Shown: piece by piece, positions 10,055-53,369 of the stretch | Position numbering within the stretch: the stretch's first letter is position 1 | Layout of the letters: every line of letters begins with the position of its first letter | Source of the DNA: Candidatus Melainabacteria bacterium | Lineage (GTDB): Bacteria; Cyanobacteriota; Vampirovibrionia; Obscuribacterales; Obscuribacteraceae | Assembly (NCBI GenBank): GCA_963767815.1 | Contig: CAVYFJ010000004.1 | Span: 501,800 to 565,799, forward strand | Length of the DNA: 64,000 bases | Direction: 5' to 3' | The notes under the pieces: generated by a model | Told to the model about the DNA's origin: nothing | What the model saw: only the letters and a program-made list of their open reading frames with translations | Databases searched by the model: none | Position numbers and translations under genes: made by a program

Positions 10055-10120
10055 AGCTGCGCTAGCTAGCGCAAGAGTTTACAATCGTTTTAATGTGCGC
10101 TTAACGATTAATATTGTTTA
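10055..10120 (+). promoter_or_regulatory. conserved island leader, copy 1 (palindrome plus promoter-like box)
   Basis: Perfect 16-nt palindrome TGCGCTAGCTAGCGCA at 10058-10073. GCGCAA-N16-TAATGT (10091-10096). Closely resembles copy 4 at 31993. Confidence 0.55.
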
Positions 10121-10485
10121 GGCTTATTGTCTGTATATAGAGAGATTTCTTTTCATACATCTTTTCTGAAAGCTGAAACTAGGCTTCTATAGAGCCATGG
10201 CTTCACTTTCTAACACTCTCGCTTTGTTTGCTTATTTAAAAACAATCTTTGATGGAAAAGCTTTTTTTGTCTAGGGCAAATCTTGTAAGTTATCAATGAG
10301 TATTTTGCGTTTTATATTCCCGAGGTTCAAACCAAGCCCCAATTTTCAAAAGAGTTGAGAAGCTTTATGCCAAATGGGGAGGCTTTGTCCTGAGGAAGAC
10401 TCAGCAATTTGAACGACTGATCTTGTTGGTCGGTTGTGGCAGTTTTGCTTGCTGAGCGAATATTACTTGCGCGAGGAGCTAGACT

Positions 10486-11025
10486 ATGAGTAGCGAACAT
10501 GAGCAGCGTCGAATCGAGGCGACGTCGGTTGTTGGTGTGGGAAACCAATTGGATCTCGCGGCACTTTCGGACGATCAAGGGCCATCCGATCCAACGTTGC
10601 CTGCCGCAACTTCGCCATTGCACGGCGAAGACTCTCTCGACACTCCTGCTGAGATGTCGACTGATCTGTCCACCGCAAATCTGATTCGGGATCTCGACTG
10701 CGAGATTAGCCTAACAGTCCCAATCGGAGCCAATTCAGCCGGACTCGCACAGCGGATAACTAAGCCCAGATCTATCAGGTGCGACCGCGATGTCTACACA
10801 GATCCAGTGATCGAATTCCAAGTGGCCACAGGACTCATCGGCCTGCTACCTACTCCTTGCGCGGTGGTGGCATCGTCAGATCCTGCCTTGACACCTGAGT
10901 CCGGGCGCGGCTCTCCTGGACTGAACGCTGGAGAGATTGGCATTTTTGACGGCACCGGACGGCTTCTCAGCAAACGAAGCGCCCAAGGTTCATCTGAACG
11001 GCCAAGCAAGGCGGAGCAGCCGTAG
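10486..11025 (+). CDS. ORFan in GC-rich island A
   Basis: 179-aa ORF, SD GAGGAG 8 nt upstream. One 60-nt line spot-counts at 67% G+C. Followed by a hairpin terminator. No recognisable domain. Confidence 0.45.
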   Translation: MSSEHEQRRIEATSVVGVGNQLDLAALSDDQGPSDPTLPAATSPLHGEDSLDTPAEMSTDLSTANLIRDLDCEISLTVPIGANSAGLAQRITKPRSIRCDRDVYTDPVIEFQVATGLIGLLPTPCAVVASSDPALTPESGRGSPGLNAGEIGIFDGTGRLLSKRSAQGSSERPSKAEQP

Positions 11026-11066
11026 TCCACGGCGGTAAAGGACAATCCAAAGATTAAGCCACGTCC

Positions 11067-11105
11067 CCGAAGGTCTGCAGATGCGGACCTTCGGTCTTTG
11101 TTTCT
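11067..11105 (+). terminator. rho-independent terminator closing island A
   Basis: CCGAAGGTC-10 nt loop-GACCTTCGG followed by TCTTTGTTTCT. Confidence 0.65.
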
Positions 11106-11244
11106 ATTGTTATTTCTTCTTTTTCTTGTTTGTTTCGGGAATTATGCATTCTGTCAGGCCCCGACTATCGAAGGTCCGCTTGTTTTAAGATCTGAAATGG
11201 GATATACTTTGTATAAACATTTATTTTTTTACGGGGTATATTTA

Positions 11245-24368: not shown

Positions 24369-24430
24369 TAGCGCTAGCCGCGCTAACTATGTCTGGAATT
24401 TAATTTCAGAAATACAATTATATTTTGCTT
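24369..24430 (+). promoter_or_regulatory. conserved island leader, copy 2
   Basis: TAGCGCTAGCCGCGCTA at 24369-24385. GCGCTA-N15-TAATTT (24401-24406). Points into island B. Confidence 0.5.
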
Positions 24431-24674: not shown

Positions 24675-25583
24675 ATGTCCATGAAACCTACCCACCCGAT
24701 GCACAGAGTTGACGTCTTCGAACTTCTGATCAATGAGGTCATTTGCTTCTGGAGAAGACAGAAAGCCGGCGAATTCAAGAGACCTGAACAAGCCCTCAGA
24801 ATTGCCCTCTCCAAGCCATTGGTGTTGGCTGGTTTTCCGGCGTTACGCCGAGTGCGAATAGAAACCCCTGACGATTATATGACCGTGGCCATCGAAGAGG
24901 GCAGCGGAGCGATCAAGTTTTATTACGATCTGACAAGTGCAGACGTCGGCGACTTTCTCGAGAGTGCAGCAACGGCGGTATTTTATTGCGCTGAGGACAC
25001 CGATGCAATTTTGTTGTCGGTCCGCTCGGTTCTGGGCAGTTCTCTGCGTAAGCCTACTCGCCTGCAGTTAGCGCGGATACGTGCAGAATATGATGCACAA
25101 AGTTTTGATGACTTGATTCTGGAGTTTTTACGGCGCGTACTGGCTTGCCCTCGCCGCAAAAACTTCACTGAGGCGGATGCGCACAGAGCTCGTCGAGTCA
25201 AAGCGTCTCGATTGAATAGTCACGAGGTGGAACGCCCATTGCGTTACCTGCACACGATTCAAGAATGGATAGCCCATCTGAAAGGAGATAAGAGTTTCGC
25301 TTGGGCGGCGACTATACTGGGGCATTTACGAGAAGCCTTTATTACCCGCTGCAATGTCGAGGCCTCCACCTGCGACAAAATTCTCGTATTAGATCCCGGC
25401 GCAAGAGTTGTCGCCCTGCTGAAGTTGCTCAATGCGCGAGAAAAGGAGCTACTAGCAAAGGATCCTGTTGCACGGTATAACAAGCAGCTCTGCGTGGCGG
25501 CAGCAGATAACTTCGCTATCAGAGTGTTAGCGTGGGCGGCAGTCGGAAACGATACTCGCAAACGCAGCGAATCTACTGGCTAA
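24675..25583 (+). CDS. ORFan in GC-rich island B
   Basis: ORF 24600..25583. Preferred start is ATG 24675 with SD GAGGAG 6 nt upstream. Helical-looking protein, no family recognised. Confidence 0.55.
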   Translation: MSMKPTHPMHRVDVFELLINEVICFWRRQKAGEFKRPEQALRIALSKPLVLAGFPALRRVRIETPDDYMTVAIEEGSGAIKFYYDLTSADVGDFLESAATAVFYCAEDTDAILLSVRSVLGSSLRKPTRLQLARIRAEYDAQSFDDLILEFLRRVLACPRRKNFTEADAHRARRVKASRLNSHEVERPLRYLHTIQEWIAHLKGDKSFAWAATILGHLREAFITRCNVEASTCDKILVLDPGARVVALLKLLNAREKELLAKDPVARYNKQLCVAAADNFAIRVLAWAAVGNDTRKRSESTG

Positions 25584-25948: not shown

Positions 25949-26842
25949 TCAACCGACCGCATCTTGCTTCTGCCGCGAGCGCATGAGGATGCGCAAGCCA
26001 GCGCGAAATCTGGACTGAAGACCCGCAACTGCCGCGCCTGGTAGAATTTTTGCTTCCTTTGCCGCGAACTCGAACAAGTTACGCAGTTCTCGCAGCAAAT
26101 TAACTTCTTGTCTGTCGTAGTCGCTAAACGGCGTGACGTAAACACCTCTTTCTTCAAGAGGCTTAGCGCCGAATCCGGTCACCCAGGTTCGAGTAGCGTC
26201 CAGCTCGTCAAATAAGGGCAATGCCTGTTCCTTCTGGCGTTGAATTAATGCCGTTAGATGAGGCAGCGCCCTATCCGTGATCCTTGTGTTGTTCAATTTG
26301 AGGGATCTCAGCCTGAGCGAATCACTCAAATAGGACACGCTGATATCATCGAACCAGGTGCCCGATGCATCCAATATGCTTAGGCTTGGCAATCCCTTTA
26401 AATGTTGGAAACCCTTACTAGTGACCCGGGTATCGGACACATTAAGGGTGTGGAGCCTATTCAAGCCTGCTAGATAGCTCATGCCCGAATCGTTGACATA
26501 CGTATCTTGTATATCGAGAACCTCTAGCCGAGCTAACTTTCGCATACAAGGCATGATCTCATTGCCAATGCGCAGGCTTTCAAGCTTGAGCACCCGCAAA
26601 TTGGGCATTGCCTTGAGAGCCGTGATGAGATTAGCTTGGGCTACGCTTGTTTGCCAAAGGTTGAGTTCCTCAACGGCTTCCGGATGCCTGATCGCTGATA
26701 AGCAGCGCCCAGTTATCTGTGCGGCGATAAGAATCAACCTGCGTACTCCAGCCAAATCGTACAGTTGCACGGCAAGCTGATCATCGGTTATGTCTGCGGA
26801 GTGCACCTGGACGGTGCCGTCAGCTGAAACTGACAGTTTCAT
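25949..26842 (-). CDS. leucine-rich repeat protein (RI-like ~24-aa LRRs) in island C
   Basis: Repeats such as LRVLKLESLRIGNEIMPCMRKLARLEVLDIQDTYVNDSGMSYLAGLNRLHTLNVSDTRVTSKGFQHLKGL. Start ATG 26842 has SD AAGGAG. Confidence 0.75.
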   Translation of the reverse strand: MKLSVSADGTVQVHSADITDDQLAVQLYDLAGVRRLILIAAQITGRCLSAIRHPEAVEELNLWQTSVAQANLITALKAMPNLRVLKLESLRIGNEIMPCMRKLARLEVLDIQDTYVNDSGMSYLAGLNRLHTLNVSDTRVTSKGFQHLKGLPSLSILDASGTWFDDISVSYLSDSLRLRSLKLNNTRITDRALPHLTALIQRQKEQALPLFDELDATRTWVTGFGAKPLEERGVYVTPFSDYDRQEVNLLRELRNLFEFAAKEAKILPGAAVAGLQSRFRAGLRILMRSRQKQDAVG

Positions 26843-27134: not shown

Positions 27135-27206
27135 CTCGCAAAGGCAAGAATTAATCAAAAATGGCAATATTAATTGACTGCGATAAGGTTAGCGCAGCGG
27201 CGCTAA
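27135..27206 (-). promoter_or_regulatory. conserved island leader, copy 3 (reverse orientation, faces the LRR gene)
   Basis: TTAGCGCAGCGGCGCTAA at 27189-27206. On the minus strand, GCTGCGCTAAC-N..-TAATAT with a 17-nt spacer (box at 27172-27167). Aligns almost base for base with copies 5 and 6. Confidence 0.55.
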
Positions 27207-31992: not shown

Positions 31993-32050
31993 TTGCGCTA
32001 GCTAGCGCAAGTGTAAAGTGCGTTTTAATAAAGCAAAAAATTGATTATAT
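31993..32050 (+). promoter_or_regulatory. conserved island leader, copy 4
   Basis: Perfect 18-nt palindrome TTGCGCTAGCTAGCGCAA at 31993-32010. GCGCAA-N15-TAATAA (32026-32031). Confidence 0.55.
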
Positions 32051-32430
32051 ATATCTAGTCTTACCGTTTGTCGCACAGTCCAGCGTCGCTGAAAATTATC
32101 AGCCAGTATTAAAAATGCGGCTAGTTGCTTCTACAAGACTGATTTTTTTCTTCCCATTTATTTGGCTTGCAGTTGACATTCTCGCTTGACTTCGCATGGG
32201 CAGAACAGGTTAAGCTAAGGCATCGTGTTTTTTGAGAGTCGAAATTCTTCCTAGTCCTGATTGAATGTCTATTTGTGCTGCCAAACTGAGTGCCTGCGGG
32301 CGCAAGTTGTGTGCTAGTCGCAAATAGGAATTTATTTCGGGACGACGAGGATGACGACGAGTTGTTTGCTCCGGCGAGATCGAGTCGTTCGGTTTGCGCG
32401 GAGCGTGGTGACTTTACGAAGGAGATTGAG

Positions 32431-32793
32431 ATGGGGATCATTCGACGCCGGTTTCAGTTTGGTTCATTAGGGGTCGAAGAGACGCTGGGTGCGGTCAACA
32501 GCCGCTTTCACAATCATGGATGCAGTGGACCGGAGACGGTCTTGCTCATACAGAGTCCAAGTTCGCTGGAGCTGTCAATCAGGGAGCGAGGATCCTCGAC
32601 GCATGTGTCCGGAACGGCAAGATCTCGCGAGGGCGGCTTAGCTGTATTAAACGGCGACCTTGCTGCCTGTCCGGGCTGGCTGCAGGATTATGTTGCCAGG
32701 GCCAGGTACCACCCCGTACACGGCCGGGCGAAAGCTGAACTACCAGGTTCGGCGAACAGTGTATTCAGGACAGGTTCAGGACCGTCAGCTTGA
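32431..32793 (+). CDS. island D protein 1, N-terminal part (probably continues by frameshift into 32660..33010)
   Basis: SD AAGGAG 6 nt before ATG 32431. MGIIRRRFQFGSLGVEETL resembles the N-terminus of island D protein 4. Confidence 0.4.
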   Translation: MGIIRRRFQFGSLGVEETLGAVNSRFHNHGCSGPETVLLIQSPSSLELSIRERGSSTHVSGTARSREGGLAVLNGDLAACPGWLQDYVARARYHPVHGRAKAELPGSANSVFRTGSGPSA

Positions 32794-33010
32794 TTGTGCC
32801 GTGGTGGAACTCTTGAGTCAGCAAGGCGACTTTCAAGCGGCCTTTCTGGAGGTTGACGGCGCGTCCAGCTTCGCCGATTCGCCGGATGACATCGCCGTTT
32901 TTCAGCAGCGGCTTGTGGATTTGCTTGACGAAATTTTCCGTGGTGCGCTCAGGGAAGAGACGCGCACGGAAGAACAGATCGCCTGGCAGTCCATGTATAA
33001 CGCAGTCTAG
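32660..33010 (+). CDS. island D protein 1, C-terminal part
   Basis: The frame shows G-rich first codon positions. C-terminal motif AAFLEVDGASSFADSPDDIAVFQQRLVDLLDEIF is shared with D2-D4. Confidence 0.4.
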   Translation: MLPVRAGCRIMLPGPGTTPYTAGRKLNYQVRRTVYSGQVQDRQLDCAVVELLSQQGDFQAAFLEVDGASSFADSPDDIAVFQQRLVDLLDEIFRGALREETRTEEQIAWQSMYNAV

Positions 33011-33073
33011 CCCCGACCCGGAGGTGTTGTTCGGCGAGCTTGTTTCTGACAGTGCGCGGCTCCGTGCCATGAT

Positions 33074-33262
33074 ATGGGGCATGTCCGGATCCACAAATCA
33101 TACCCCATCGACTTTGTGATCAGCGTCTGCCCCGGTGAGGTCGAGCCACATGCGTGGCTCGACGCCGGGGCATATACAAGTTTCCGTTTGTTCGCTTTCG
33201 AGGAGAATGCACGTGCACGATCCGAAAACTGTCCGGCGTACCTGGGTGATCAATTCCAATGA
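33074..33262 (+). CDS. island D protein 2, N-terminal fragment (likely linked through 33135..33413 to 33394..33834 by frameshifts)
   Basis: ATG-initiated ORF 64 nt after D1. Three overlapping plus-strand frames tile 33074-33834. Confidence 0.3.
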   Translation: MGHVRIHKSYPIDFVISVCPGEVEPHAWLDAGAYTSFRLFAFEENARARSENCPAYLGDQFQ

Positions 33263-33393
33263 GGAGGCTTCCAGAATTCGAGATCGGCTCGAGCACCCTG
33301 GTGCTCTTGAGAGGCATTACCGGTATTGTGGTGCATACACTGAACGTCGCCTGCTGCGCCGGGAACCTGGACCCCTGGGACCCATGATGCAAA

Positions 33394-33834
33394 TTGTTGT
33401 TGTCGATCGTTGACGACGATCTCGAGGATGGAAGCAGTCGGACAATTTCTTGGACGCAACCTACTTCGGTCGGTGCGCCGACAAGTTACTCGTATGACTT
33501 GAGCGATCTTGTCCCGCCGCTATGGGAGTTAATCCGGACGGCAATCAACCCCACGATTGAGTACTCGCTGAATCGTGAGTATTTCCAGGGGCATGCTGAT
33601 AATCTCCGGTCGGCGAATTGTTCTATTGTTCGTTTGACCGCGCCGGGTGCGCAAGAGTCGTGGTTCCTCGACTTCGAGGTCAGCATGATGTGCGACGATG
33701 GCGACGATCGTGTACTTCAGGTTGAGCATGCCCTCGACGTGCTGGTATGTGCGTTGATGGGGCAGGCTCGTCCGCCAGAAGTGACGGTCGACTTTGATCG
33801 CATCATCCTTGAATCCCAGCCGCAACCTGCCTGA
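33394..33834 (+). CDS. island D protein 2, C-terminal part
   Basis: 146-aa ORF containing SWFLDFEVSMMCDDGDDRVLQVEHALDVLVCAL. Its stop is 3 nt before the next ATG. Confidence 0.45.
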   Translation: MLLSIVDDDLEDGSSRTISWTQPTSVGAPTSYSYDLSDLVPPLWELIRTAINPTIEYSLNREYFQGHADNLRSANCSIVRLTAPGAQESWFLDFEVSMMCDDGDDRVLQVEHALDVLVCALMGQARPPEVTVDFDRIILESQPQPA

Positions 33835-33837
33835 AGA

Positions 33838-34614
33838 ATGCCGGACTGTGCGACCAGCAATCGTCGCACAGTGAAAAACGTCCAGCCAATCGAATCCTAC
33901 GCAGTAGCATGGCGCGGTGGATCAAGTCATACGACTTACACCGCGCCATGGCATTTCCCGAGATCGGAGAACCCACAAATGCTATTTCGCCAATCGTGCC
34001 GCTTCCGCATCAGTGATGTGTCCTGCGCCCTTGCGGCTGAGACACTGCAAGGCAATGATCCAAACGGACGTCCTTACCGGCGCCAGGGTACCGAGCAGTT
34101 TCAGTGCTTGCTGTGCCCTGAGCGAATTGGTTCGGCCGAGTGCCTCCTGCTCACGAATGGTCATGACCTGTGGGGCACAACTCGGTCCACCCTGAGCGGA
34201 ATTCTCAGTCGGTGCAGCCGCGAACCCACGGGAAGCACTGGCCCAATGGAGTTCAGGACCGAATTGGGCTCGGACCAGACCCACGACATACTGTCGACTC
34301 TCCTCACCGATACTACGGGCAGACAACTTCTGTCTTACCGACTCACACGTGAAATTTACTTCGGTACCGCCGAATGCTGGGATACCGAAATCGCTCTTAC
34401 CTCCTTGACCGACGGCAGCGAAACCATTGGTGATTATATCGAAATTACCATATGGGGACGGCTGGAGGACAGTAACGAAGAGTGCGAAAAAGCAGGCCGG
34501 TTGATTCCCGGCTTGCGATCGATCATAGCTCAGGGCGTGCGGCAAGACGAGCTGCGTGACTGGCCGCAGATTGCCTACCAGTACCAGCTCGCCAGGTGGG
34601 CGGCAATCACCTGA
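33838..34614 (+). CDS. island D protein 3
   Basis: 258-aa ORF starting 3 nt after the D2 stop. The C-terminal half looks protein-like (GDYIEITIWGRLEDSNEECEKAGRLIPGLRSII). The N-terminal half is less convincing. Confidence 0.4.
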   Translation: MPDCATSNRRTVKNVQPIESYAVAWRGGSSHTTYTAPWHFPRSENPQMLFRQSCRFRISDVSCALAAETLQGNDPNGRPYRRQGTEQFQCLLCPERIGSAECLLLTNGHDLWGTTRSTLSGILSRCSREPTGSTGPMEFRTELGSDQTHDILSTLLTDTTGRQLLSYRLTREIYFGTAECWDTEIALTSLTDGSETIGDYIEITIWGRLEDSNEECEKAGRLIPGLRSIIAQGVRQDELRDWPQIAYQYQLARWAAIT

Positions 34615-34784
34615 ACTGGCCGCAGTCACGCTGATTCCTCACAATGCAGGCTGCTTCTGCAGGAGATGAAAGGTTCTCAAAAGTGATCGCGTCGGAGAGT
34701 ATGCCGAAGACGACAGAGCTGCGTTCATGCGAGTCGCGCGTGCGGCTTGCACCGCAGCATAACCATGTTTCTGGAGGAAATGCG

Positions 34785-35456
34785 ATGATCACAAAGCGCT
34801 TCGCGCTGACAAGTTTCGAGCTTGCTGGAGTCCGACATCAACTAATTGGAAGATCAGATCTATATGCTCATGACACTGGCCAACGTGCTGAACAGGTCCT
34901 TTACCCAGGACCGTTCGGCGAGATCCAGTGGGTCATATGCCAGAAAAATCAATCAGGAATTGCGGAATTGACCTGTCTTCGATACGGTGCGGGAAACCGT
35001 CTGCTGGAAGAGCACCACCAACCGACATCCAGTGCCGGCAACGACGAGCGGATTCTCTATCGCGTGCTTGAGGGCTTGGGGGCGGTGCATGCCATTTCCC
35101 ACTACGTAAATAGGCGCATCTGGACTTTCACTGCGCCTAAGGCACAAGACCAGTTCTGCACCCTCCTCGATGGTCGAGTGTCCGAACTCACGCTTGTCGG
35201 TATCGCGGACCGAAATCAGGAAGAAGTCGCTGGCTATCTCGATGTGTCCATAGAGCGGAGACTAACGGACTTTCCGCAGAAAATGGCGGCACTCTCGCTT
35301 CTGCCTGGCCAGTTGTATCTTTATCTGCTGAACAGTTCTGGCAAAGACGAGCCGCGCAGCCATGAGCAGATCGTCTTTCAGTGCCTGGCAAGCGAAGAAG
35401 TACTCCACGGCGGGACTGTGGGTAAACCGAGGACTCGCATGATCGAATCGGACTGA
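34785..35456 (+). CDS. island D protein 4
   Basis: ATG 34785 with SD GGAGGA. MITKRFALTSFELAGVRHQL.. and AGYLDVSIERRLTDFPQKMAALSLLPGQLYLYL. Confidence 0.5.
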   Translation: MITKRFALTSFELAGVRHQLIGRSDLYAHDTGQRAEQVLYPGPFGEIQWVICQKNQSGIAELTCLRYGAGNRLLEEHHQPTSSAGNDERILYRVLEGLGAVHAISHYVNRRIWTFTAPKAQDQFCTLLDGRVSELTLVGIADRNQEEVAGYLDVSIERRLTDFPQKMAALSLLPGQLYLYLLNSSGKDEPRSHEQIVFQCLASEEVLHGGTVGKPRTRMIESD

Positions 35457-35547
35457 AAACCGATTGCCGCTGCATACGTAAGATCCGGACATCAATGATC
35501 AGGCGAAGCCGGATCCAAGCAAAATGCCCGAGCAATCTTCGGAGGGC

Positions 35548-35600
35548 GAAAGGAAGTGATGGCACCGCCACCACTTCCTTTCGTTTACCTTGGTTTTCTT
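35548..35600 (+). terminator. rho-independent terminator closing island D
   Basis: GAAAGGAAGTG-loop-CACTTCCTTTC followed by a T-rich tract. Confidence 0.7.
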
Positions 35601-35687
35601 TTCTATTTTTGTTTTGCCAAATAAAATTATGCGAGGAGTACTTTTCTTTCACTTAATCAAAAGGACACTGCCAGTGATTCGAAATTG

Positions 35688-40923: not shown

Positions 40924-41079
40924 GTAGGGGTCGATGCAAGTCGACCCGTGTTCGATGCGCCTCCTCTAAACGACGATTTTGGTTAAATCTAAACGGGCGG
41001 GCTTGCGCCCGCCCCTACGAGTTCGGTCGTATGCGTCGTTCCAACAGGGACAGTGGAGCGGACTTGCGCTCGTCCCTAC
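40924..41079. repeat. REP cluster
   Basis: GTAGGGGTCGATGCAAGTCGACCCG .. ACGGGCGGGCTTGCGCCCGCCCCTAC .. GGAGCGGACTTGCGCTCGTCCCTAC. The last CTA is the stop of the minus-strand kinase. Confidence 0.85.
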
Positions 41080-43001: not shown

Positions 43002-43182
43002 TGGTTCTCACACAATTATATGGCCTCTTGGCATTGGACTTCACAAATTCGCCACAAACTCTAGTTACTATGACAATTATTGACCGTTATCAAATTAGTT
43101 GCAGTAGATCAATTATCCAATTGATTTCTTCTTCTAGTGATAACTGAAAAGTACCGTCCTAAATTATATAGAGGTGATGATC

Positions 43183-43404
43183 ATGAACACGAAACAAATT
43201 CTAGCTTCCTGCCTGAGCTTATCAGCTTTAGTGGCAACTAGCTTACCGGCTTTTGCTATTAAGTCTGCTCCAGTTTCCGGTAAATCCCCAGCTGTGCAAT
43301 CAGCCAAGGTTAAAAGCGCAAAGATTAAATGCACAAAGATGGGTGGCAAGAAATCGGCAAAAATCAAAGCCACTACTTTAGTTGCCACAAAGAAAAGCAA
43401 ATAA
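43183..43404 (+). CDS. small secreted Lys-rich protein
   Basis: MNTKQILASCLSLSALVATSLPAFA signal peptide, then KSAK repeats. Confidence 0.5.
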   Translation: MNTKQILASCLSLSALVATSLPAFAIKSAPVSGKSPAVQSAKVKSAKIKCTKMGGKKSAKIKATTLVATKKSK

Positions 43405-43448
43405 TTAGCACGAACACCAGACCCTCACACGAATCGTAATGGCAAATC

Positions 43449-43496
43449 GTAGGGGCAGATTGTAGGGGCGGGCGCAAGTCCGCCCGCTTCTGCAGA
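43449..43496. repeat. REP copies (one truncated, one full)
   Basis: GTAGGGGCAGATT followed by GTAGGGGCGGGCGCAAGTCCGCCCG. Confidence 0.85.
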
Positions 43497-43510
43497 ACGA
43501 AGCCCGCTCT

Positions 43511-44977
43511 TTAATTGACAAGCGGTATTTTTACTATTCTATGCTTATCTTTTTCTACTGCCGATTCTTTAATCGCCGGTATCAGAGTATTGGAGCTATA
43601 GTCTGCCTGAGCACTAACTATTTTTGGCGATTCAGATTTTCCAGTTAAATTGCCAATTACTTCTTCGGAGAAGGTCATTAAAGGCGGATTTTTAGTTACC
43701 AGTGCAAAGCGATAACTATCAAGTGCAAGCGCACTTTCTTGGCTTAATACTTTTAAGCGGCTTTGAATTCTTTTGTCTAATAATAATTCGCGCTCTAGTT
43801 TGTTTAGCTCTGTGCCGCCGGTGCTCAATTTATAACCAATTTCAGCCGCTCCAGCTGCAACAGATGGGATTATCCCTGGAGCGAACAAAGCAATGGCATC
43901 GAGGGTGGCCTGAATGACATTGGAAGAGTACTGGAACGTTTTAGATGGATGACCGTATTTGTATACTTTCTTTGTTACTTTAGTAATTACTGGATCCTTT
44001 TCCACAGCAGCTTTCAATACTTCTTCAAGCTTCTTAGAGCGCTCCATGGTTGTCCATGGTGTTTGATTAAAACTGGCATAAGAAGCTGGTATATTTCCTA
44101 GCCACTGTGTCATGGCTTTAACAGCGCGTGCGGCTTCTTCATCACCTACCAAAGTTACAAGCGCTTCTTTGCCTGCTGTAATTGACTTGGCGCCACGCTC
44201 GGATTCATTATTGCCAATACCTTCGGCTATTTCCATTAGACTGGACACAATCTGGAAATGAATTTGGTCAATATATTTTTGCCTTACATATTCTGCCCAG
44301 GCATTATTGCGAATTTTATAATCATGTGACTCACAAATTAGCCTGCCTGCGCGCATAGACGGCTCAATACCTTGGTATTCAATCTCCTGATTTACACCAT
44401 CTTTGATAACGGCAACGGACTTATGCACAAAATTATTTTGACGCTTAACTTGCTCATCTAATTTCTTGCCTTCCGGTGAATTTTCAAAATGAGTGTCAAC
44501 AAGATAATTAACCAGGCGGTCAACATCAAATGGACCTTCAAAGTCAGAAACACTACCGCTAATCAATTTACTATTTTTGCCAATATTGGCTGTTGTGCCA
44601 GCCGAATCTGCACTGGCGATCAGTGTGTTTTGCAGAGTTTCGGGCGCTGAAAGTGTCAACACTTCATATTTTTTTGGTTTGAACAAATCAAGGCCGCTAT
44701 TTTGCGCAGCTGCGCTTGCTTTTGCCTCATTCGAGGATGCTACGGCTTGATCAGGTTGTGCGCCCAATTGTCCTTGAAAAGGAAGTGACCATTTGGGGAC
44801 TAACAAAACTGAACGTTTTTTATCAGTGCCAGAATTTGAATGGGATCCAGAATTACTCGGTGCTGCCGTTACAGAAATTTCGCTCACCAGTACATTTGGC
44901 TGAGCTTGATTTACTGCTGCTATTGAAGCAGTAGTACAAAGAAAATAACTGGCAGCCGCTAAATATTTGACTTTCAA
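43511..44977 (-). CDS. exported hypothetical protein
   Basis: 488-aa ORF, signal peptide MKVKYLAAASYFLCTTASIAA. No family recognised. Confidence 0.65.
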   Translation of the reverse strand: MKVKYLAAASYFLCTTASIAAVNQAQPNVLVSEISVTAAPSNSGSHSNSGTDKKRSVLLVPKWSLPFQGQLGAQPDQAVASSNEAKASAAAQNSGLDLFKPKKYEVLTLSAPETLQNTLIASADSAGTTANIGKNSKLISGSVSDFEGPFDVDRLVNYLVDTHFENSPEGKKLDEQVKRQNNFVHKSVAVIKDGVNQEIEYQGIEPSMRAGRLICESHDYKIRNNAWAEYVRQKYIDQIHFQIVSSLMEIAEGIGNNESERGAKSITAGKEALVTLVGDEEAARAVKAMTQWLGNIPASYASFNQTPWTTMERSKKLEEVLKAAVEKDPVITKVTKKVYKYGHPSKTFQYSSNVIQATLDAIALFAPGIIPSVAAGAAEIGYKLSTGGTELNKLERELLLDKRIQSRLKVLSQESALALDSYRFALVTKNPPLMTFSEEVIGNLTGKSESPKIVSAQADYSSNTLIPAIKESAVEKDKHRIVKIPLVN

Positions 44978-45255
44978 TCTAAATTTTTCACGTGTGTTTG
45001 TGCTGCGTCCAGCTTAACTCTCTCTGGACCAAGTGAAGCTTAAAGTTTTCTATTTATTTCCAGCTATCCCATGACAAGCAAATAAAACACGCAACCAGGC
45101 TTAAAAGTTGTTCGATGAAACAAAGTGAACAAATATCAAGAGAAACCGGTTTGTTCAACCAATTCAACCCTTTTAGACAAACTCTATTTCGGATTATTAT
45201 AATGCCCATGTAAGCATATGGATTGGATGCGTTGCGGCAATGAGGAAAATATTCT

Positions 45256-45789
45256 ATGGAACTAACTGGCAAGAAAGTATTGATTTTAGCTGGACCGGAC
45301 TTCGAAGATAGGGAGCTTTTTTATCCGCTCTATCGTTTACAGGAAGCAGGCGCAACGGTGAAAGTAGCTGGCTTGGGTGAAAAAACCTACAAAGGGAAAT
45401 ATGGCGTGCCGATAGACGTTGATGGCAACGCGCAAGACTTTGTTCAGGAAACTTGGCATGCGGTGTTTATTCCTGGTGGCTGGGCGCCGGATAAGATACG
45501 CGCTGATAAGGCAGCGTTAGAAATTGTGCGCAAAGCAATGAGCAGCGGCAATATTGTCGCTGCAATTTGTCATGCCGGCTGGGTGCTGGCGTCGGCTGAT
45601 GTGGTGCGCGGCAAAACTGTTACCAGTTTCGTTAACATCAAAGACGATCTAATTCACGCTGGTGCTAAGTGGGTGGATCAAGAAGTGGTTATTGATGGCA
45701 ACCTGGTCACATCGCGCAAGCCTGCAGATTTGCCTGCCTTTTGCCGCGAAGTAATAAAACTGATGGCCAAAACAAAAGTGGCCGTGTGA
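45256..45789 (+). CDS. DJ-1/PfpI-family protease/deglycase
   Basis: 177 aa. FEDRELFYP, VAAICHAGWVL nucleophile elbow, LVTSRKPADLPAF. Confidence 0.88.
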   Translation: MELTGKKVLILAGPDFEDRELFYPLYRLQEAGATVKVAGLGEKTYKGKYGVPIDVDGNAQDFVQETWHAVFIPGGWAPDKIRADKAALEIVRKAMSSGNIVAAICHAGWVLASADVVRGKTVTSFVNIKDDLIHAGAKWVDQEVVIDGNLVTSRKPADLPAFCREVIKLMAKTKVAV

Positions 45790-45819
45790 CAGGATAAGAC
45801 GGCGTACATGCTTGAAATT

Positions 45820-45876
45820 GTAGGGGCGGATTGCATCCGCCCGTTGATGTAACGGGCGCACATGCCGCGCCCCTAC
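45820..45876. repeat. REPIN (inverted REP doublet)
   Basis: GTAGGGGCGGATTGCATCCGCCCG-ttgatgta-ACGGGCGCACATGCCGCGCCCCTAC. Confidence 0.9.
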
Positions 45877-45906
45877 AAATAGTCCCACATTCGAATCACT
45901 TTATCG

Positions 45907-45934
45907 AATGATGCCAAGCATGCTTGGCATCATT
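45907..45934. terminator. perfect 28-nt palindrome (possible bidirectional terminator or insulator)
   Basis: AATGATGCCAAGCATGCTTGGCATCATT. Only a weak T-tract follows (GAATTTTA). Confidence 0.35.
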
Positions 45935-45944
45935 GAATTTTACT

Positions 45945-46005
45945 TTGCGCTAGCTGCGCTAGTCTTGAAGGTCCGAATTAATATCTTATTTTTATCCAAT
46001 CTGGG
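45945..46005 (+). promoter_or_regulatory. conserved island leader, copy 5
   Basis: TTGCGCTAGCTGCGCTAG at 45945-45962. GCGCTA (45956-45961)-N17-TAATAT (45979-45984), then TTATTTTTA. Confidence 0.6.
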
Positions 46006-46274
46006 GCTGAGTTTGTATGAGGCTAGAGCATATGTCTCAGTTATCTAAAGTTCGATAAGAATATTCTGCTCTCGGAAAACTTGATTTTATCTGCTTCTTG
46101 TCATTAGGCTGCAGGTATCGATTTGGTTTTCAATTTTTTTTCGAAGGGAGGTCTGCATGCAATGAGAATGTTTTCTGTCGCAGTTGTTCTGTGACGGAAA
46201 ACAACCGGGAAAGTCGCGCAGGCTTTCTTGAACGAAAGTGATTAGACATTTCAGACAAGGAAAGCGAGGTCCCT

Positions 46275-46670
46275 ATGGGGACGGATGTGGATGCACAAGC
46301 ACAAGCAGAGCCAGAAGCGCCTTTTCTTGCGGCGATTGCCAAACGCCAACGGCAGGCTGAAGAGGACTTCGACGCACTGTGGGAGCGGGTGAAGTTCAAT
46401 CTGCAGGGCGACGCAGCCGAAGAGTTCTGGCAGCAATGGATGCTGCCGCTCAAGCGGCGCGTCCGACAGACGGAGGACAATTTCTTTGTTCTGGCTGCCA
46501 AAGGACTCTTGCAGAAAGAGCCGCATCAATGGGTCGCGTGGACGGCCCAAGTCTGTCACGTCGCGTCCCTGTTGCGGGACGCAAGAGAGTTTTACATCCA
46601 GGATGGCATGCAAGACGTGTGCCAGAGTTTCCTGGGAGAAGCAGCCTCCCGATGTATGAATCTCTATTAG
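46275..46670 (+). CDS. ORFan 1 in GC-rich island E
   Basis: 131-aa ORF on the strand the leader points to. Competing overlapping ORFs exist in other frames and on the other strand. Confidence 0.45.
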   Translation: MGTDVDAQAQAEPEAPFLAAIAKRQRQAEEDFDALWERVKFNLQGDAAEEFWQQWMLPLKRRVRQTEDNFFVLAAKGLLQKEPHQWVAWTAQVCHVASLLRDAREFYIQDGMQDVCQSFLGEAASRCMNLY

Positions 46671-46820
46671 TTGCCGAACCCGGCGACCAATCCGCTGCTT
46701 GCGGCGGGCAATGTCAGAATGCCTCGGGCGGACACAGCCCCTTCAGCCCTTGTTTGAGAACGAGGGCTGACGCTCAACTTCGGATCAGTAGCACTCTCAC
46801 TCTAACCACAAAGGCAAACG

Positions 46821-47228
46821 ATGCCCAAGACTCGCACGGAGCAGGCTACAGAGATCGAATTGGATCTCCGCAATGATCTAACTGCACTTCTAGCGGAGAT
46901 ACGAGCTGCCGGTGGTGATTGGCAAATGCCAAGCCGTCCGGACCTGGATCGACTTTCAGAGATCTTGCCGCCCGCGCGGGGCAATATTTTTGAGAGAACT
47001 GTACGGTTGATTGAGACTCTGCCGGAGGATGAGGCAGAGACCTTGATCAGAGGACTGGCTATGATTCACGCGTTGCTCGGGCTTACGCTGGATGCTCGCC
47101 GTAAGCATCGCCACGAACGTTTCGGAATCGACGTCATGATGACGACCCTCCATCCCGCCCGACAAAGGGCGGATCAGTTTCTAGAACGTCTCGACGTTCT
47201 CGTGAAACGCTTCTGTACCACCACCTGA
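46821..47228 (+). CDS. ORFan 2 in GC-rich island E
   Basis: 135-aa helical-looking ORF ending 27 nt before a strong GC hairpin. Confidence 0.5.
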   Translation: MPKTRTEQATEIELDLRNDLTALLAEIRAAGGDWQMPSRPDLDRLSEILPPARGNIFERTVRLIETLPEDEAETLIRGLAMIHALLGLTLDARRKHRHERFGIDVMMTTLHPARQRADQFLERLDVLVKRFCTTT

Positions 47229-47254
47229 AGCGCTTCTGACGATATGTTTTCCCA

Positions 47255-47282
47255 CCCCGGACGGACGCCACTCCGTCCGGGG
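47255..47282 (+). terminator. GC hairpin at the end of island E
   Basis: CCCCGGACGGA-cgccac-TCCGTCCGGGG. No clear U-tract, so terminator function is uncertain. Confidence 0.4.
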
Positions 47283-47383
47283 ACAGCATCATTCGATTAT
47301 TGCCATAATTTTCTTTTTCCAGTCAATTCTATCGGACATTTCCTGCCGCGCGCTTGGCAAAAACAACAGATGTTGCTTGCCGG

Positions 47384-47686
47384 CTAACTCATCTTTGCTG
47401 ATGTGTTTGAAGACATCAGTGTTCTTTTCTTTTCTGTGAGCAAAAAAGCAAAAGGTATGCGAGCGATTTCCGCGTCATTTTTTGTTTCATAGAATAGAGC
47501 TAGTCCATCGCCGTCAACTAATTGCATTTGCGAGATGATCAAATGAGGCTGATTTTTGCGTGCTAAGAAAAGGGCTAAGGCTATTGAATTAGCCGTGATC
47601 ACCACAGCATCTTCTTGATCCAATGAATCTTTTATCGGTTGAAAATAGGAAGCTTCTTTGCCAGCCGCCAGCAGTTTTAAAGTCAT
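47384..47686 (-). CDS. stand-alone receiver-like domain (probable pseudo-receiver)
   Basis: 100 aa with a CheY-like fold pattern. The N-terminal acidic pair is absent (LLAAGKE) and the phospho-acceptor position reads ISQ instead of the usual D. Confidence 0.55.
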   Translation of the reverse strand: MTLKLLAAGKEASYFQPIKDSLDQEDAVVITANSIALALFLARKNQPHLIISQMQLVDGDGLALFYETKNDAEIARIPFAFLLTEKKRTLMSSNTSAKMS

Positions 47687-47773
47687 TTTTCTTTTAAATC
47701 AAATATTGAGCTTATGATTAAACCGGCGAGTAATTAATCGCATGCGATAATTATGCCAGGCAGGATGGATGAT

Positions 47774-48670
47774 ATGGAAAAACGTGTCTTAGGCAAAACT
47801 GGTTTATCAGTAAGCATTCTTGGCTTTGGTGGCGCAGAAATTGGTTTTCAAAACGCCACGCCAAAAACTGTTGAGAAGCTATTGGCTGAGGCGCTCGAAG
47901 CCGGCTTGAATGTTATTGACACCGCTGAATGTTATGTCAATAGTGAAGAGTTAATTGGCAACGCGCTTGGCAAGCGGCGAAAGCATGTGCATATATTTTC
48001 GAAATGCGGTCATGATACAAATTATATGGACAATGCCTGGACGGCCAAAGATATCGAAATGTCTATCGATCGAAGTTTGACGCGCCTGAAGACTGATTAT
48101 TTGGATCTCCTCCAATTGCATAGCTGTTCGGAAAATATTCTCAAACAAGGCGAAGTGGTTGAGGCTGTGCGCAAAGCCAAACGTGCCGGCAAGACCCGCT
48201 TTATTGGCTATAGTGGTGACGGGCAGGCTGCTTTGTATGCCATCAAGTCTGGTGCTTTTGACACTTTGCAAACATCAATAAATATTGCCGATCAAGAAGC
48301 GCTAGAGCTGACATTACCTCTGGCGATGGAACAAAATATGGGTGTGATCGCCAAAAGACCATTGGCTAATGCCGCTTTTAGATATAAGAGCAAGCCGGAT
48401 AATGAATACCATGCTCCTTACTGGGAACGCTTGCAGAAGCTCCAATATGACTTTGTTAATGGTGATATTAACTTGGCAGCGGCCACTGCCTTGCGGTTTA
48501 CTCTCAGCGTGCCGGGCGTGCATACAGCCATAGTGGGGACAGCAAATGCCGGGCGATACGCAAAAAATGCTAAACTTCTTGCCGCTGGACTTTTATCAAA
48601 AGACGAATTTGACTCTATTCGCTCTCGCTGGCAAAATGTGGCAAAGCCGCAATGGATTGGGCAACAATAA
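47774..48670 (+). CDS. aldo/keto reductase
   Basis: MEKRVLGKTGLSVSILGFGG, IDTAECY, YLDLLQLH, IGYSG. The ORF is open from 47753. Confidence 0.88.
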   Translation: MEKRVLGKTGLSVSILGFGGAEIGFQNATPKTVEKLLAEALEAGLNVIDTAECYVNSEELIGNALGKRRKHVHIFSKCGHDTNYMDNAWTAKDIEMSIDRSLTRLKTDYLDLLQLHSCSENILKQGEVVEAVRKAKRAGKTRFIGYSGDGQAALYAIKSGAFDTLQTSINIADQEALELTLPLAMEQNMGVIAKRPLANAAFRYKSKPDNEYHAPYWERLQKLQYDFVNGDINLAAATALRFTLSVPGVHTAIVGTANAGRYAKNAKLLAAGLLSKDEFDSIRSRWQNVAKPQWIGQQ

Positions 48671-49374
48671 AACGAGATCAAGAAGTGGAAGAAACTAAAG
48701 CAGCAGAAACGAAAACTTTTAAAGAATTGGTTAAACGATTGCAGGAGCAAAAAGGGTTAGTCACCGGTGCCTTTGCCGGCAATTCTGAAATCTTGAAGCG
48801 AGTGCGTGAATATGAGCAGTCCCAACAAGCGGTGACCCAGCAGATTAATTTAGCAGCAGCTCGCGGTGAGGATTTGGAAAAGCTTGCTTTGCTGGATCCG
48901 TTAACTGATTTATATAATCATCGCAGTTTTATAAAGGAATTGAAGTCGGAGCTTAATCGCGCTCGCCGTTACCAGCATGCTGTCGCTTTGTGTGTGCTAA
49001 GCATTGATCATTTCGATGACCTAGTAAAACAATATGGACAGCTTACTGCCGATGCCATATTGAAAATAGTAGGCAATGTTGTGAAGCATGGCGTTAGAGA
49101 AGTGGATATTTCGGGACGTTACCATGGTCCTCAATTTATTATCGCTTTAACAAGATCTGGTATTTCAGGTGGCGCGATAGTTGCAGAGCGTATCAGACAA
49201 CGCATTGGCGCTCAGGCAATTAGCCATAACTGGCAAAGTTTTTCTCTAACGGCCAGCTTTGGTGTTGCCGCTTATCCAGAGCAAGCAATGGAATACGATG
49301 AGCTGATTGCTCGCGCCTTGGAAGCCCAGGAGCATGCCACTGCCCGTGGTGGCGATCGTGTCCTGGCCGTTTAG
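48652..49374 (+). CDS. GGDEF-domain protein with a degenerate active site
   Basis: DPLTDLYNHRSF.. then REVD-ISGRY-HGPQF where RxxD-x5-GG(D/E)EF is expected. Confidence 0.8.
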   Translation: MDWATIKRDQEVEETKAAETKTFKELVKRLQEQKGLVTGAFAGNSEILKRVREYEQSQQAVTQQINLAAARGEDLEKLALLDPLTDLYNHRSFIKELKSELNRARRYQHAVALCVLSIDHFDDLVKQYGQLTADAILKIVGNVVKHGVREVDISGRYHGPQFIIALTRSGISGGAIVAERIRQRIGAQAISHNWQSFSLTASFGVAAYPEQAMEYDELIARALEAQEHATARGGDRVLAV

Positions 49375-49401
49375 TCCCCATTGACATCGGCTTATCAAGA
49401 T

Positions 49402-49460
49402 ACGCTAGCTGCGCTAACATTGAAGGCTTGATTTAATACTTTATTTTTAGTCAATCTTGC
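49402..49460 (+). promoter_or_regulatory. conserved island leader, copy 6
   Basis: ACGCTAGCTGCGCTAAC at 49402-49418. GCGCTA (49411-49416)-N17-TAATAC (49434-49439), then TTATTTTTA. Confidence 0.6.
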
Positions 49461-49782
49461 ATGCTAGCCGGATGCGTTTTTGGCTGGTTATGTCTATGCC
49501 TAAAGGGCATGGATGATACATTTGCAAAAAATTGAGTTCTTGATAATCGTTAAAAAATTCTGGTGCAGCAGATATTGTTTCGCCGGCAATCAATACGTTA
49601 GGTTAGGGAATCGGTTGTCATTACAGGGAAACAAACAGGACTAGGCGAAGAAGCAAAACAGCGCAGAGCACGTGCATAGAATTTCCAGTTATTTTTGACT
49701 GGAGGTTAATGCTTGGCATTGATACAACCGCTGGGATGTCACCGGTGGTCGCACGAAGATTCATTTGTACAGGAGCAAAACT

Positions 49783-50889
49783 ATGGATCGCGAAGCTTAT
49801 CACAGCGATTTGCTGATTTACCAAAGGTGGCTTAAAGAGAAATTGATCGCCTTGCGTATAAAAGTGCCAGGGATAAATGATTCCTATCCCGGTTTGTTGG
49901 AGGCGCTGAGTGAAGTGGTTGCGGTAATAGACATCAAGGATGGCAGATCGTCATTGATTGATTCTCTATTACGCAGGGAAGATGGCGCAGAAACGGACTT
50001 CAATTGCGCTATCGGACTGCTGAAAACCGGTGACGAAACAATTGGTGCTGCGTTGAAAAAGTTGTCTTCCAGCCCGCCATCGGGCTTTGCCGGCAAGAGC
50101 GATCTGACGAAGGCAGTCGGCTTCTTCCGTCCCCTCACGCACTTTGCCGCGGCTGGTCGCTGGCTGCCAGAAACTGCACCCAAAGGCGTAAAGCTTCCGC
50201 GCCGTGAGCGGGTGCCACGGAGCACAGCTTCGGAAGCGCGACGTCCGCGGACTCCACCAAGTTCTGGGGCAGGGGAACCGAGGGCGACTGTGGAACAGGA
50301 TTCGAGCTCATCACTGTCGTCGCGGCCGACACCAAGTCTAGCGTCGAATCCGAGGGCAAGACAGCCCGAGCCGGCTCCCAGCCCGACTCCCGCGCCACCT
50401 CCGCGGCCGATGCTGCAGGATCCCGCGCTTGGTGCGAAGCCCGCGGCAGCACCATTGCCATCTCCATCATCAAATGGGGTGCCTAAAGCGGATTCAATGC
50501 TCTCGATATTCCAACAGCTCAATGCCAGGGCTTTGGACTGTCTAGGGGCAATCAAAGAGCAATTCGGGACTGAGCAGCCCGCTGCTTTGGTTGAGTTGGA
50601 AATGCTCCTTCAACCACCCTATGATCATCAGGCAGATTCAATCAAATTGCCGGACCTCATTGAGAGTGTCGGGCATACCCTCGAATATCTCCGCAGTAAG
50701 TCCCTTCGGTTGCCGGATGTTGAAGCAATTATCCAAAAAACCGGGCAAGGGATAAGGCGAATGTGGGAAGTTGCTGCTAGCCTCGGTCATGATGCACCTC
50801 TCGATTTCGATGAGGCTGCGCAAGAACTTTCCAGAGCTCAGGCAGAATTTATGGAAGTCCCCTTCCTTGTGTTTCCCAAGCGCAAGTAA
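49783..50889 (+). CDS. ORFan in GC-rich island F (helical ends, Pro/Ser/Arg-rich disordered centre)
   Basis: ATG 49783 with SD AGGAG. 368 aa. The long antisense ORF 49884..50555 is judged an artefact of high G+C. Confidence 0.55.
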   Translation: MDREAYHSDLLIYQRWLKEKLIALRIKVPGINDSYPGLLEALSEVVAVIDIKDGRSSLIDSLLRREDGAETDFNCAIGLLKTGDETIGAALKKLSSSPPSGFAGKSDLTKAVGFFRPLTHFAAAGRWLPETAPKGVKLPRRERVPRSTASEARRPRTPPSSGAGEPRATVEQDSSSSLSSRPTPSLASNPRARQPEPAPSPTPAPPPRPMLQDPALGAKPAAAPLPSPSSNGVPKADSMLSIFQQLNARALDCLGAIKEQFGTEQPAALVELEMLLQPPYDHQADSIKLPDLIESVGHTLEYLRSKSLRLPDVEAIIQKTGQGIRRMWEVAASLGHDAPLDFDEAAQELSRAQAEFMEVPFLVFPKRK

Positions 50890-50951: not shown

Positions 50952-51007
50952 GACCCGCAGGGACGGCACGGACTGCCGGCCTTCCGGGTCAATTTTCTTT
51001 TTTTATT
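50952..51007 (+). terminator. rho-independent terminator closing island F
   Basis: GACCCG..(nested GGCA/TGCC)..CGGGTC followed by AATTTTCTTTTTTTATTT. Confidence 0.65.
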
Positions 51008-51080
51008 TGGCGATCAAAATCTATAACGGTGCCACCAGTATGCTAGTAGTCCAAAAATGATTATTTTGGAGAAGCAAAGA

Positions 51081-53360: not shown

Positions 53361-53369
53361 AAGGTAACG

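Follow-up and report, generated by a model that had tools for sequence, protein, structure and literature searches.

The pho box read by PhoB and the PmrA box (cTTAATatT-N2-cTTAATatT), which precedes the Icm/Dot effector genes of Legionella and Coxiella, are activator boxes that replace the -35 element of a promoter. Other boxes define regulons in a related manner: the hrp box is read by the extracytoplasmic function (ECF) sigma factor HrpL, the PIP box by HrpX and the tts box by TtsI. The Melainabacteria are the closest non-photosynthetic relatives of the cyanobacteria, and almost all knowledge of them comes from metagenomes; the group includes the predator Vampirovibrio. To our knowledge, nothing has been reported on gene regulation in these bacteria, and we know of neither an hrp-, PIP- or tts-type regulon nor a secretion system in them. 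Here we describe a 64,000-nucleotide stretch from the genome of a Candidatus Melainabacteria bacterium (assembly GCA_963767815.1, contig CAVYFJ010000004.1, positions 501,800 to 565,799 of the forward strand), termed the window and numbered from its first letter, which holds six copies of a promoter-like module. Each copy joins a box, GCGCTAGCTGCGCTA, to a -10-like element, and each faces a GC-rich block (island) of mostly orphan open reading frames (ORFs), referred to as its cargo; the six units are labelled A to F. The module is lineage-wide, measures about 65 bp and keeps a constant orientation, spacing and downstream architecture, whilst the cargo is accessory, lineage-restricted and evolves near-neutrally with its open reading frames kept. 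With a probability of roughly 0.6, we take the module to be a promoter class specific to this lineage: the box would stand in for the -35 element, be read by a regulator or sigma factor, and control accessory, fast-diverging genes.

The closest likeness is to the PhoB and PmrA boxes, which also consist of tandem units at a fixed distance upstream of a -10 element with no recognisable -35 element, and in the case of the PmrA box many unrelated, fast-evolving and lineage-specific genes likewise stand behind one box. The sequences are unrelated, however, the units of the Melainabacteria box have a period of 8–10 nt (mostly 9) against 10–11 nt, and, unlike in the PhoB and PmrA regulons, the cargo is richer in G+C than the genome and lies behind a leader of 250–400 nt. 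The hrp, PIP and tts boxes resemble it in that one short cis element marks scattered accessory genes, often of atypical composition; a further likeness to the hrp/PIP type is that the cargo of unit C, a leucine-rich-repeat (LRR) protein, has a Ralstonia GALA effector as its best sequence match in the PDB (E 2e-8), which is a generic LRR similarity. Both sequence and geometry differ from those of the hrp, PIP and tts boxes, and secretion of the cargo is hypothetical. The units are also comparable with phage morons, as promoter-like element, G+C-shifted gene or genes and own factor-independent terminator are found together between unrelated genes. Unlike morons, they lie between chromosomal housekeeping genes (kdp, pyrimidine-synthesis genes, mnmG) and not in a prophage, match nothing in PHROGs or a viral collection, and all share one special promoter-like element. 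Integron cassettes are promoterless, carry attC at the 3' end, are held in one array and need IntI; the units are similarly small, variable and mostly orphan ORFs gained and lost as units, but they have a promoter-like box at the 5' end and no attC-like 3' element. An integron cassette was rejected as an identification because the 3' ends carry nothing beyond generic terminators, an integrase is lacking and the scattered units have promoters of their own. An IS200/IS605 element or miniature inverted-repeat transposable element (MITE) was rejected because only 38–55 nt are shared at the 5' end, no transposase domains occur and no consistent flanking repeat is seen, and a known RNA family, defence element or phage element because Rfam, PADLOC and PHROGs gave no match. 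Literature searches on the motif and on promoters of Melainabacteria and Obscuribacter returned only cloning primers or unrelated papers. The earlier note on this DNA, made from its letters without database searches, had named no described element of this architecture, and no description was found in these databases or in the searchable literature; the logic of a regulon defined by a box is of a known kind.

All six sites reported in that note were verified in the window. The pattern GCGCWA-N15-17-TAAT has exactly six matches on both strands, which are these six sites, whereas the shuffled window gave a mean of 1.8 matches and reached six in 0/100 shuffles. A stricter form, CGCTAGCT-N0-1-GCGCWA-N14-16-TTAAT, is matched by four of the six sites against 0.00 expected, and scanning the window with a profile derived from 17 sites revealed no seventh site. 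The octamer GCGCTAGC, on which the element had been said to be built, is not significantly enriched when taken alone (seven occurrences against 2.9 expected), one of its matches (6254) is unrelated, and the exact octamer is missing from two of the six sites. A division into two subfamilies held for the copies at 45945 and 49402 (80% identity over 55 nt) and for those at 10058 and 31993 (84% over 38 nt), but the minus-strand copy at 27206, described as aligning with 45945 and 49402 almost base for base, is a looser member. Similarity between copies is confined to 38–55 nt at the 5' end, the remaining 2.5 kb downstream not being alignable, and all six sites are intergenic and directed towards cargo.

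A consensus was derived from 36 distinct sites aligned on the -10-like element. It reads ttgCGCTAGCTGCGCTAa-N14-ATTTAAT, in which ATTTAAT is almost invariant, and the distance from the box to TTAAT is 16 nt in 27 sites, 15 nt in six and 14 nt in three. The palindrome that had been regarded as the conserved feature was not upheld, since the units repeat in tandem in the 36-site consensus, CGCTAGCT-GCGCTA. These alignments are best described by a box of GCGCTAGCT and then GCGCTA, to which several sites add one more unit (GCGCTAGCTGCGCTAGCTGCGCTA or GCTAGCGCTAGCTGCGCTA); 10058 and 31993, which are perfect palindromes, represent a local variant. When folded as RNA, the boxes gave z-scores from -2.9 to +0.5, and the consensus form was no better than shuffles. 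The copies at 27206 and 31993 do form hairpins of 7–8 bp, and five of the six window sites lie 9–200 nt past the stop codon of a same-strand gene, which would suit a palindrome that acts as terminator or insulator of the upstream gene at insertion hot spots, one of three readings offered in the earlier note. It is highly improbable that this is its role, as the hairpin is not consistent, no U-tract follows the box, the commonest form (45945, with z -0.7; 49402, with z +0.5; and the majority of sites elsewhere) forms no better hairpin than shuffled sequence does, real terminators or repetitive extragenic palindromic (REP) hairpins already stand upstream of several boxes, and the D site lies in a divergent promoter region and not after a gene.

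If TAATnn is taken as the -10 element, GCGCTA falls at the -35 position with a 17-nt spacer, and the box GCGCTAGCT-GCGCTA spans about -46 to -30 with its centre near -38; activator boxes, and the -35 elements of alternative sigma factors, have such a geometry. The sites are not canonical sigma-70 promoters: GCGCTA matches TTGACA at 2/6 positions, and the E and F sites were not called in a sigma-70 consensus scan of 44000–52000. They do share with promoters a two-part element of near-fixed spacing, an intergenic position and an orientation to the downstream gene. The absence of a TTGACA-like -35 element under or beside the box, on which a housekeeping sigma factor could act, together with the failure of the sigma-70 scan and a family consensus that is a direct and not an inverted repeat, makes it quite unlikely that the box is the operator of a global repressor or silencer of potentially harmful foreign or fast-evolving genes laid over a housekeeping promoter. 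Such an operator would nevertheless account for a box centre at about -38 that covers the whole -35 region, as is typical of occlusion, for the good palindromes among the copies, since operators of dimeric repressors are palindromic, and for cargo that is accessory and whose composition sets it apart from the genome at large. Of the modes of control, repression from the -35 position is the less likely.

Searches of related genomes, which the earlier note had proposed, yielded further sites in four Melainabacteria metagenome-assembled genomes (MAGs) and at 16 metagenome loci. The strict motif was scanned over one genome per species from 185,579 species, the source genome not being among them, and 17 exact matches were obtained. 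Eight are the Melainabacteria sites, four of them on one 358-kb contig; the other nine look like chance matches because they have no common taxon and no downstream rise in G+C. The metagenome loci were found with CGCTAGCTGCGCTA-N14-16-TTTAAT and all have one form; wherever there is downstream sequence, they show the composition described below. With a profile search the total rose to 39 sites, among them second sites inside the same loci of 8–12 kb and degenerate variants of the motif in L020 and L021; a viral collection scanned for the motif gave 0 matches. The motif is present in six or more other genomes, in front of unrelated cargo. The named relatives of the aldo-keto reductase (AKR) and dihydroorotase encoded in the window are from 'Candidatus Obscuribacterales' or Melainabacteria MAGs.

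Composition downstream of the sites is reproducible. Melainabacteria sites with enough sequence are followed by about 200–400 nt of low G+C, then by a block of 0.55–0.68 and then by a return to baseline, and the ORFs behind them begin at +280 to +440. For the 27 sites with at least 1 kb downstream, mean G+C is 0.40 in the leader, 0.54 in the cargo and 0.47 in the locus. The association of the motif with GC-shifted genes, which the earlier note had put forward for testing, was upheld at these sites, as a GC-rich block on the same strand lies behind 24 of the 27 sites (cargo above the locus mean, Wilcoxon p about 1e-5) and the cargo is at least 0.05 above the locus mean in 22 of them, against 22% of random positions. 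The same orientation, spacing and composition downstream are met again at 27 independent sites of at least six genomes, shuffles never reached the count in the window, and the box is unrelated in sequence to the REP family; it is therefore scarcely conceivable that the box is a chance repeat or a REP or MITE remnant unlinked to the downstream genes, even though a separate REP-like family is abundant here and three boxes lie 40–80 nt from one of its copies. The sites are clustered, with six in 40 kb of the window and tandem units in L001, L013 and L030. In L030, two complete box-plus-TTTAAT modules stand 47 nt apart (428–520), and L001 (2118, 702) and L013 (3083, 4643) have back-to-back units, each with its own box.

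Under the proposed promoter class, each site would be the promoter of one self-contained transcription unit composed, in order, of the box, the -10-like TTTAAT, the leader, a strong ribosome-binding site, one to five GC-rich ORFs and an intrinsic terminator. Because the box at the -35 position does not resemble TTGACA, a lineage-specific DNA-binding protein would be needed, and this could be either a tandem-binding activator similar to PhoB or PmrA or an alternative sigma factor that uses GCGCTA as its -35 element. One signal would then cause all units to respond as a regulon. An OmpR-type regulator encoded at 42330–43001 was considered as a lead and dropped, as relatives without islands E and F have kept it too.

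Comparison with relatives has shown how differently the two halves of a unit evolve. The closest is L018, an ENA contig on which the AKR next to islands E and F is 93% identical; it is colinear with window 42789–60373 at 77–82% DNA identity, and identity at four-fold degenerate sites of the flanking genes is down to about 50%, so that neutral sites are close to saturation. At locus E, identity is 81–95% across the box, the -10 element and some 210 nt of leader, whilst beyond a mini-ORF in the leader the DNA is no longer alignable. The promoters and, at locus E, the leader are under strong purifying selection. The island E cargo proteins and their L018 counterparts share 23–38% identity (E1 and L018_3729, 38% over 60 aa, E 9e-9; E2 and L018_4148, 28% over 88 aa, E 3e-10), and the locus holds four cargo ORFs in L018 and two in the window. 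Codon identity in the E cargo is 0.51–0.57 at position 2 against 0.33–0.36 at position 3, and as position 2 is the more conserved, the proteins are under weak constraint rather than none. The reading under which the motif was a dedicated promoter or operator ahead of horizontally acquired genes, a logic that the earlier note compared with hrp- and PIP-box regulons, can therefore be kept in part: a dedicated promoter or operator before non-core genes is best supported, with fixed spacing, intergenic position and recurrence with unrelated cargo, but horizontal acquisition was not borne out, the cargo being without homologues and locus E showing vertical inheritance with near-neutral divergence.

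The blocks are accessory, as they are not syntenic in all relatives. Island E is absent from L022 and L023 (AKR 74% and 70% identical), in which the PfpI gene stands almost directly before the reductase gene. Island F (about 49417–50980) is missing from L018, where the junction ACGCTAACTGCGCTAG-CCTACTTGC-GGGTCAATTTTCTTTTTTT consists of the box, nine bases and the terminator tail; F is also absent from L023, but L022 carries it at the same locus, with a degenerated copy of the box, a -10 region like that of the window and a pair of paralogous ORFs (about 140 aa) without sequence relation to the window cargo. Since F is found at the same locus in L022, the alignments indicate that F is old and was lost from L018 by deletion. 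The promoters of E and F, 3.4 kb apart, are alike beyond the family consensus (CTTGAAGG, TTATTTTTA and CAATCT, seen at the F locus of L022 too), and for this reason a duplication of the F promoter next to it is the probable origin of E. L021 lacks island D together with its MazEF pair and has other genes in their place; a dihydroorotase search gave relatives at ≤73% identity only, D is not conserved at that distance, and no clean empty site for D was found among these relatives. The cargo apparently multiplies by local duplication and is lost by deletion.

These gains, losses and apparent duplications are also what the second reading in the earlier note, a family of mobile cassettes, would lead one to expect. 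On that account the units would be mobile or semi-mobile, the box would serve as the site of recombination or insertion, or as a conserved 5' end that a trans-acting recombinase recognises, and promoter activity would be secondary. The account gains from the L018 junction, in which the box is kept and the breakpoint lies directly 3' of GCGCTA(G), from the absence of E in L022 and L023, from the E/F promoter likeness, which suggests duplication, from the clustering of sites, and from a 13-nt repeat, matching at 11 of 13 positions, that flanks island E, within which modules are shuffled between genomes. It is nonetheless unlikely. No integrase, transposase or HUH enzyme lies in or beside any unit, in keeping with the earlier report that none was visible; the 3' ends have only a generic terminator in common; comparable direct repeats flank none of the other five islands, and that of E is not kept in L018; and neither leaders nor cargo are similar between units. 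The presence of F at the same locus in L022 and the orthologous E leader point to long residence and not to frequent movement, and an invariant TTTAAT spacing is unexpected for a recombination site. As for the L018 junction, CTGC is shared by box and terminator, and because of this microhomology an ordinary deletion is enough to explain it.

Several observations count against the promoter class as proposed. The promoter role is read from sequence, and the regulator or sigma factor is hypothetical. In the window copies, the spacing of the two box units ranges over 8–10 nt, and two of these copies are inverted and not direct repeats, an awkward arrangement for a rigid dimer; the sixth position of TAATnn is the expected T in only about half of the sites; and a box centre near -38 suits a repressor too. 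The one deletion boundary available, that of L018, coincides exactly with the 3' edge of the box and could mean recombination there. A promoter model explains neither the richness of the cargo in G+C nor the great length of the leaders, and the source genome is absent from the collections searched, its sites being counted within the window only.

The six units of the window, the coordinates of which are given in Table 1, together occupy about 10 kb of its 64 kb (about 16%). A 300-nt profile of G+C marks all six blocks, as had been noted from spot counts. The cargo in the window has a G+C of 0.51–0.57 and a G+C at third codon positions (GC3) of 0.53–0.65, against 0.38–0.47 in neighbouring genes; over all units, GC3 of the cargo is 0.53–0.73, and the periodicity of G+C by codon position is of coding type. 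Each unit has one to five ORFs. The offsets recorded earlier between the palindrome and the first ATG with a ribosome-binding site (428, 306, 364, 438, 330 and 381 nt) are correct, and a GGAG-type ribosome-binding site lies 5–8 nt before each of these ATGs. The hairpin ends described for units A, D, E and F were confirmed, as were the T-tracts at A, D and F, and in all four units the hairpin has a T-rich tail.

Relatives of the cargo proteins were sought widely. The ORF of unit B has no homologue except itself among 5.8 billion proteins, and E2 has no relative in an exhaustive HMMER search of 1.84 billion representative proteins. Apart from the leucine-rich repeats of C, no cargo ORF in the window matches Pfam, PADLOC or PHROGs, and of 37 cargo ORFs from other genomes no more than six (16%) have a Pfam domain: two carry FHA, and GGDEF, S41 peptidase, PDZ and NnrS occur in a single member each. 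The cargo proteins of different units and genomes are mutually unrelated, save for tandem paralogues within one unit, an example being D, in which the paralogues at 32660–33010, 33838–34614 and 34644–35456 have a common C-terminal domain of about 90 aa (22–29% identity). AlphaFold2 models had a predicted local distance difference test (pLDDT) score of 48.6 for cargo B and 35.3 for D4 with its paralogues, which is too low for a fold search. To judge from these sequences, the pattern suggests proteins engaged in biological conflict or in interaction with a host or prey, an effector-like arsenal.

The leaders are 250–400 nt long and of low G+C. They cannot be aligned between units, no word rises above shuffle level in the leaders of the six units and they have no shared leader peptide. 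With Rfam, no model reached its gathering score anywhere in the window, and over 45900–49850 none matched even at E≤1. Better folding than shuffles was found only for the leaders of E (z -4.4) and F (z -2.9), not for the other four. The core of the E leader (46028–46165) is about 95% identical to that of L018 (a 125-nt core) and ends at a ribosome-binding site plus mini-ORF, the latter reading ATG-TAA in L018. In the predicted fold, the ribosome-binding site is paired with an upstream CUC stretch, which is supported by one compensatory change, and the mini-ORF is followed by a hairpin, GTTTTCTGTC..GACGGAAAAC. Core, mini-ORF and hairpin lie within 46028–46215 of the window, to which L018 3522–3658 corresponds. 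A copy of this hairpin module, with compensatory changes, recurs elsewhere in the L018 island (5375–5440), and modules must therefore have been shuffled.

Table 1. Positions of the units and their parts in the window.
Feature	Position	Strand	Description
Promoter-like module A	10058..10096	+	box TGCGCTAGCTAGCGCAA (inverted-repeat variant), 16 nt, TAATGT
Leader A	10103..10485	+	about 385 nt, GC 0.38; ends GAGGAG-N7-ATG
Cargo A	10486..11025	+	179-aa orphan ORF, GC 0.57; no Pfam, PADLOC or PHROGs match
Terminator A	11064..11125	+	hairpin CCGAAGGTCTGCA/TGCGGACCTTCGG plus T-rich tail
Promoter-like module B	24369..24406	+	box TAGCGCTAGCCGCGCTAA, 14–15 nt, TTTAAT
Cargo B	24675..25583	+	302 aa from ATG with ribosome-binding site; 327 aa from upstream TTG
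Promoter-like module C	27167..27206	-	box TTAGCGCCGCTGCGCTAA, 16 nt, TTAATA
Cargo C	25949..26842	-	leucine-rich-repeat protein, GC 0.51; convergent with B
Promoter-like module D	31993..32031	+	perfect 18-nt palindrome TTGCGCTAGCTAGCGCAA, then TTTTAATA
Cargo D	32290..35456	+	GC 0.555; ORF region 32290–33400 fragmented
Intact ORFs of cargo D	33394–33834, 33838–34614, 34644–35456	+	
Terminator D	35545..35605	+	hairpin CGAAAGGAAGTGATGGC/GCCACCACTTCCTTTCG plus T-rich tail
Promoter-like module E	45945..45984	+	box TTGCGCTAGCTGCGCTAG, 16 nt, TTAATA; kept in sister genome L018
Leader E	45991..46274	+	fold z -4.35; ribosome-binding site, mini-ORF ATG-CAA-TGA 46157–46165, then hairpin
Cargo E	46275..47228	+	E1 46275–46670 (131 aa), E2 46821–47228 (135 aa)
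Terminator E	47253..47320	+	hairpin CCCCGGACGGA..TCCGTCCGGGG and T-rich tail; kept in L018 (compensatory changes)
Promoter-like module F	49402..49439	+	box ACGCTAGCTGCGCTAA, 16 nt, TTAATA; 28 nt past stop of GGDEF gene
Cargo F	49783..50889	+	about 368-aa orphan ORF, GC 0.55, Pro/Ser-rich middle
Terminator F	50953..51012	+	GGGTCAATTTTCTTTTTTTATTTGG with T-tract; tail still present at L018 deletion site

The genes that neighbour the units encode KdpA, KdpD, MnmG, dihydroorotase, PfpI, AKR, histidine kinases, and GGDEF and TPR proteins; no tRNA gene was found in the window. Module D is divergent from an amidase gene (30526–31896). MazE/MazF (PemK) pairs lie directly behind the terminators of islands A (11098–11828) and D (35752–36319, MazEF-like). 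The interval from island E to the reductase gene contains, on the minus strand, a small ORF (47384–47686) that resembles a receiver domain and matches Response_reg weakly; it is present in L018 (5949–6347) and L023 (6496–6900) and absent in L022. Several genes are seemingly split into two ORFs (kdpA, 17217–18969; kdpD, 22128–24168; RecD2, 6603–8619), which may be frameshifts of a long-read assembly or real pseudogenes, and the fragmented region of cargo D may share the cause. Two other GC-rich stretches (39992–41310 and 61199–61844) were rejected as further islands, being Pro/Ala/Gly-rich parts of ordinary genes without a box. A protein with an MshE-like cyclic di-GMP-binding domain precedes some 700 nt of ORFs in other frames that are rich in Pro/Ala/Gln (38789–40836 in all); the ORFs at 40296–40836 may be a frameshifted low-complexity C-terminal extension, which accounts for a GC-rich patch without a box. 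At the end of metagenome contig L021 (1–600), from a related genome of 41% G+C, GC-rich tandem repeats of about 105 nt were seen.

Two other repeat families are present in the window. A REP-like dispersed element, approximately ATCGTAGGGGCGG-N6-10-CCGCCCG, is abundant (26 matches) and often forms head-to-head pairs between genes (examples of the element are at 24165/24297, 45820/45869, 53305/53353, 6093/6141, 41011 and 41072). The three copies close to boxes lie upstream of them, and one 59-nt copy is also kept in L018 (9750–9808). Copies occur within ORFs as well, at 38486 (ORF 36590–38668), 54225 and 55222, the first coinciding with a C-terminal MnmG extension of about 75 aa (692 aa against 616 positions of the MnmG model). 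A second over-represented palindrome, unrelated to the box, is TTGCCGGCAA, with 8 copies; TTGCCGGC/GCCGGCAA has 24.

A tentative and rather unlikely synthesis joins these results. The units would be a so far unrecognised kind of box-leader-orphan-terminator unit in Obscuribacterales-type Melainabacteria, which would multiply by local duplication, exchange modules by shuffling, diverge near-neutrally and be deleted, and which would serve as an innovation compartment or effector arsenal under a single lineage-specific regulator acting through GCGCTAGCTGCGCTA. The conserved long leaders would be translational switches, one for each unit, and the raised G+C would be a by-product of turnover, arising, for example, from GC-biased gene conversion in a recombination-prone compartment. 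A box that tags many orphan genes would allow a regulon to be defined from sequence, its regulator to be sought by phylogenetic co-occurrence and a guess to be made at the lifestyle of the organism. For the evolution of orphan genes, the loci offer a case in which regulatory DNA is far more conserved than the proteins it would control, and in which duplication, shuffling and deletion of units are visible between sister genomes. The excess of G+C in cargo that follows an AT-rich leader may point to a mutation or recombination bias specific to this compartment.

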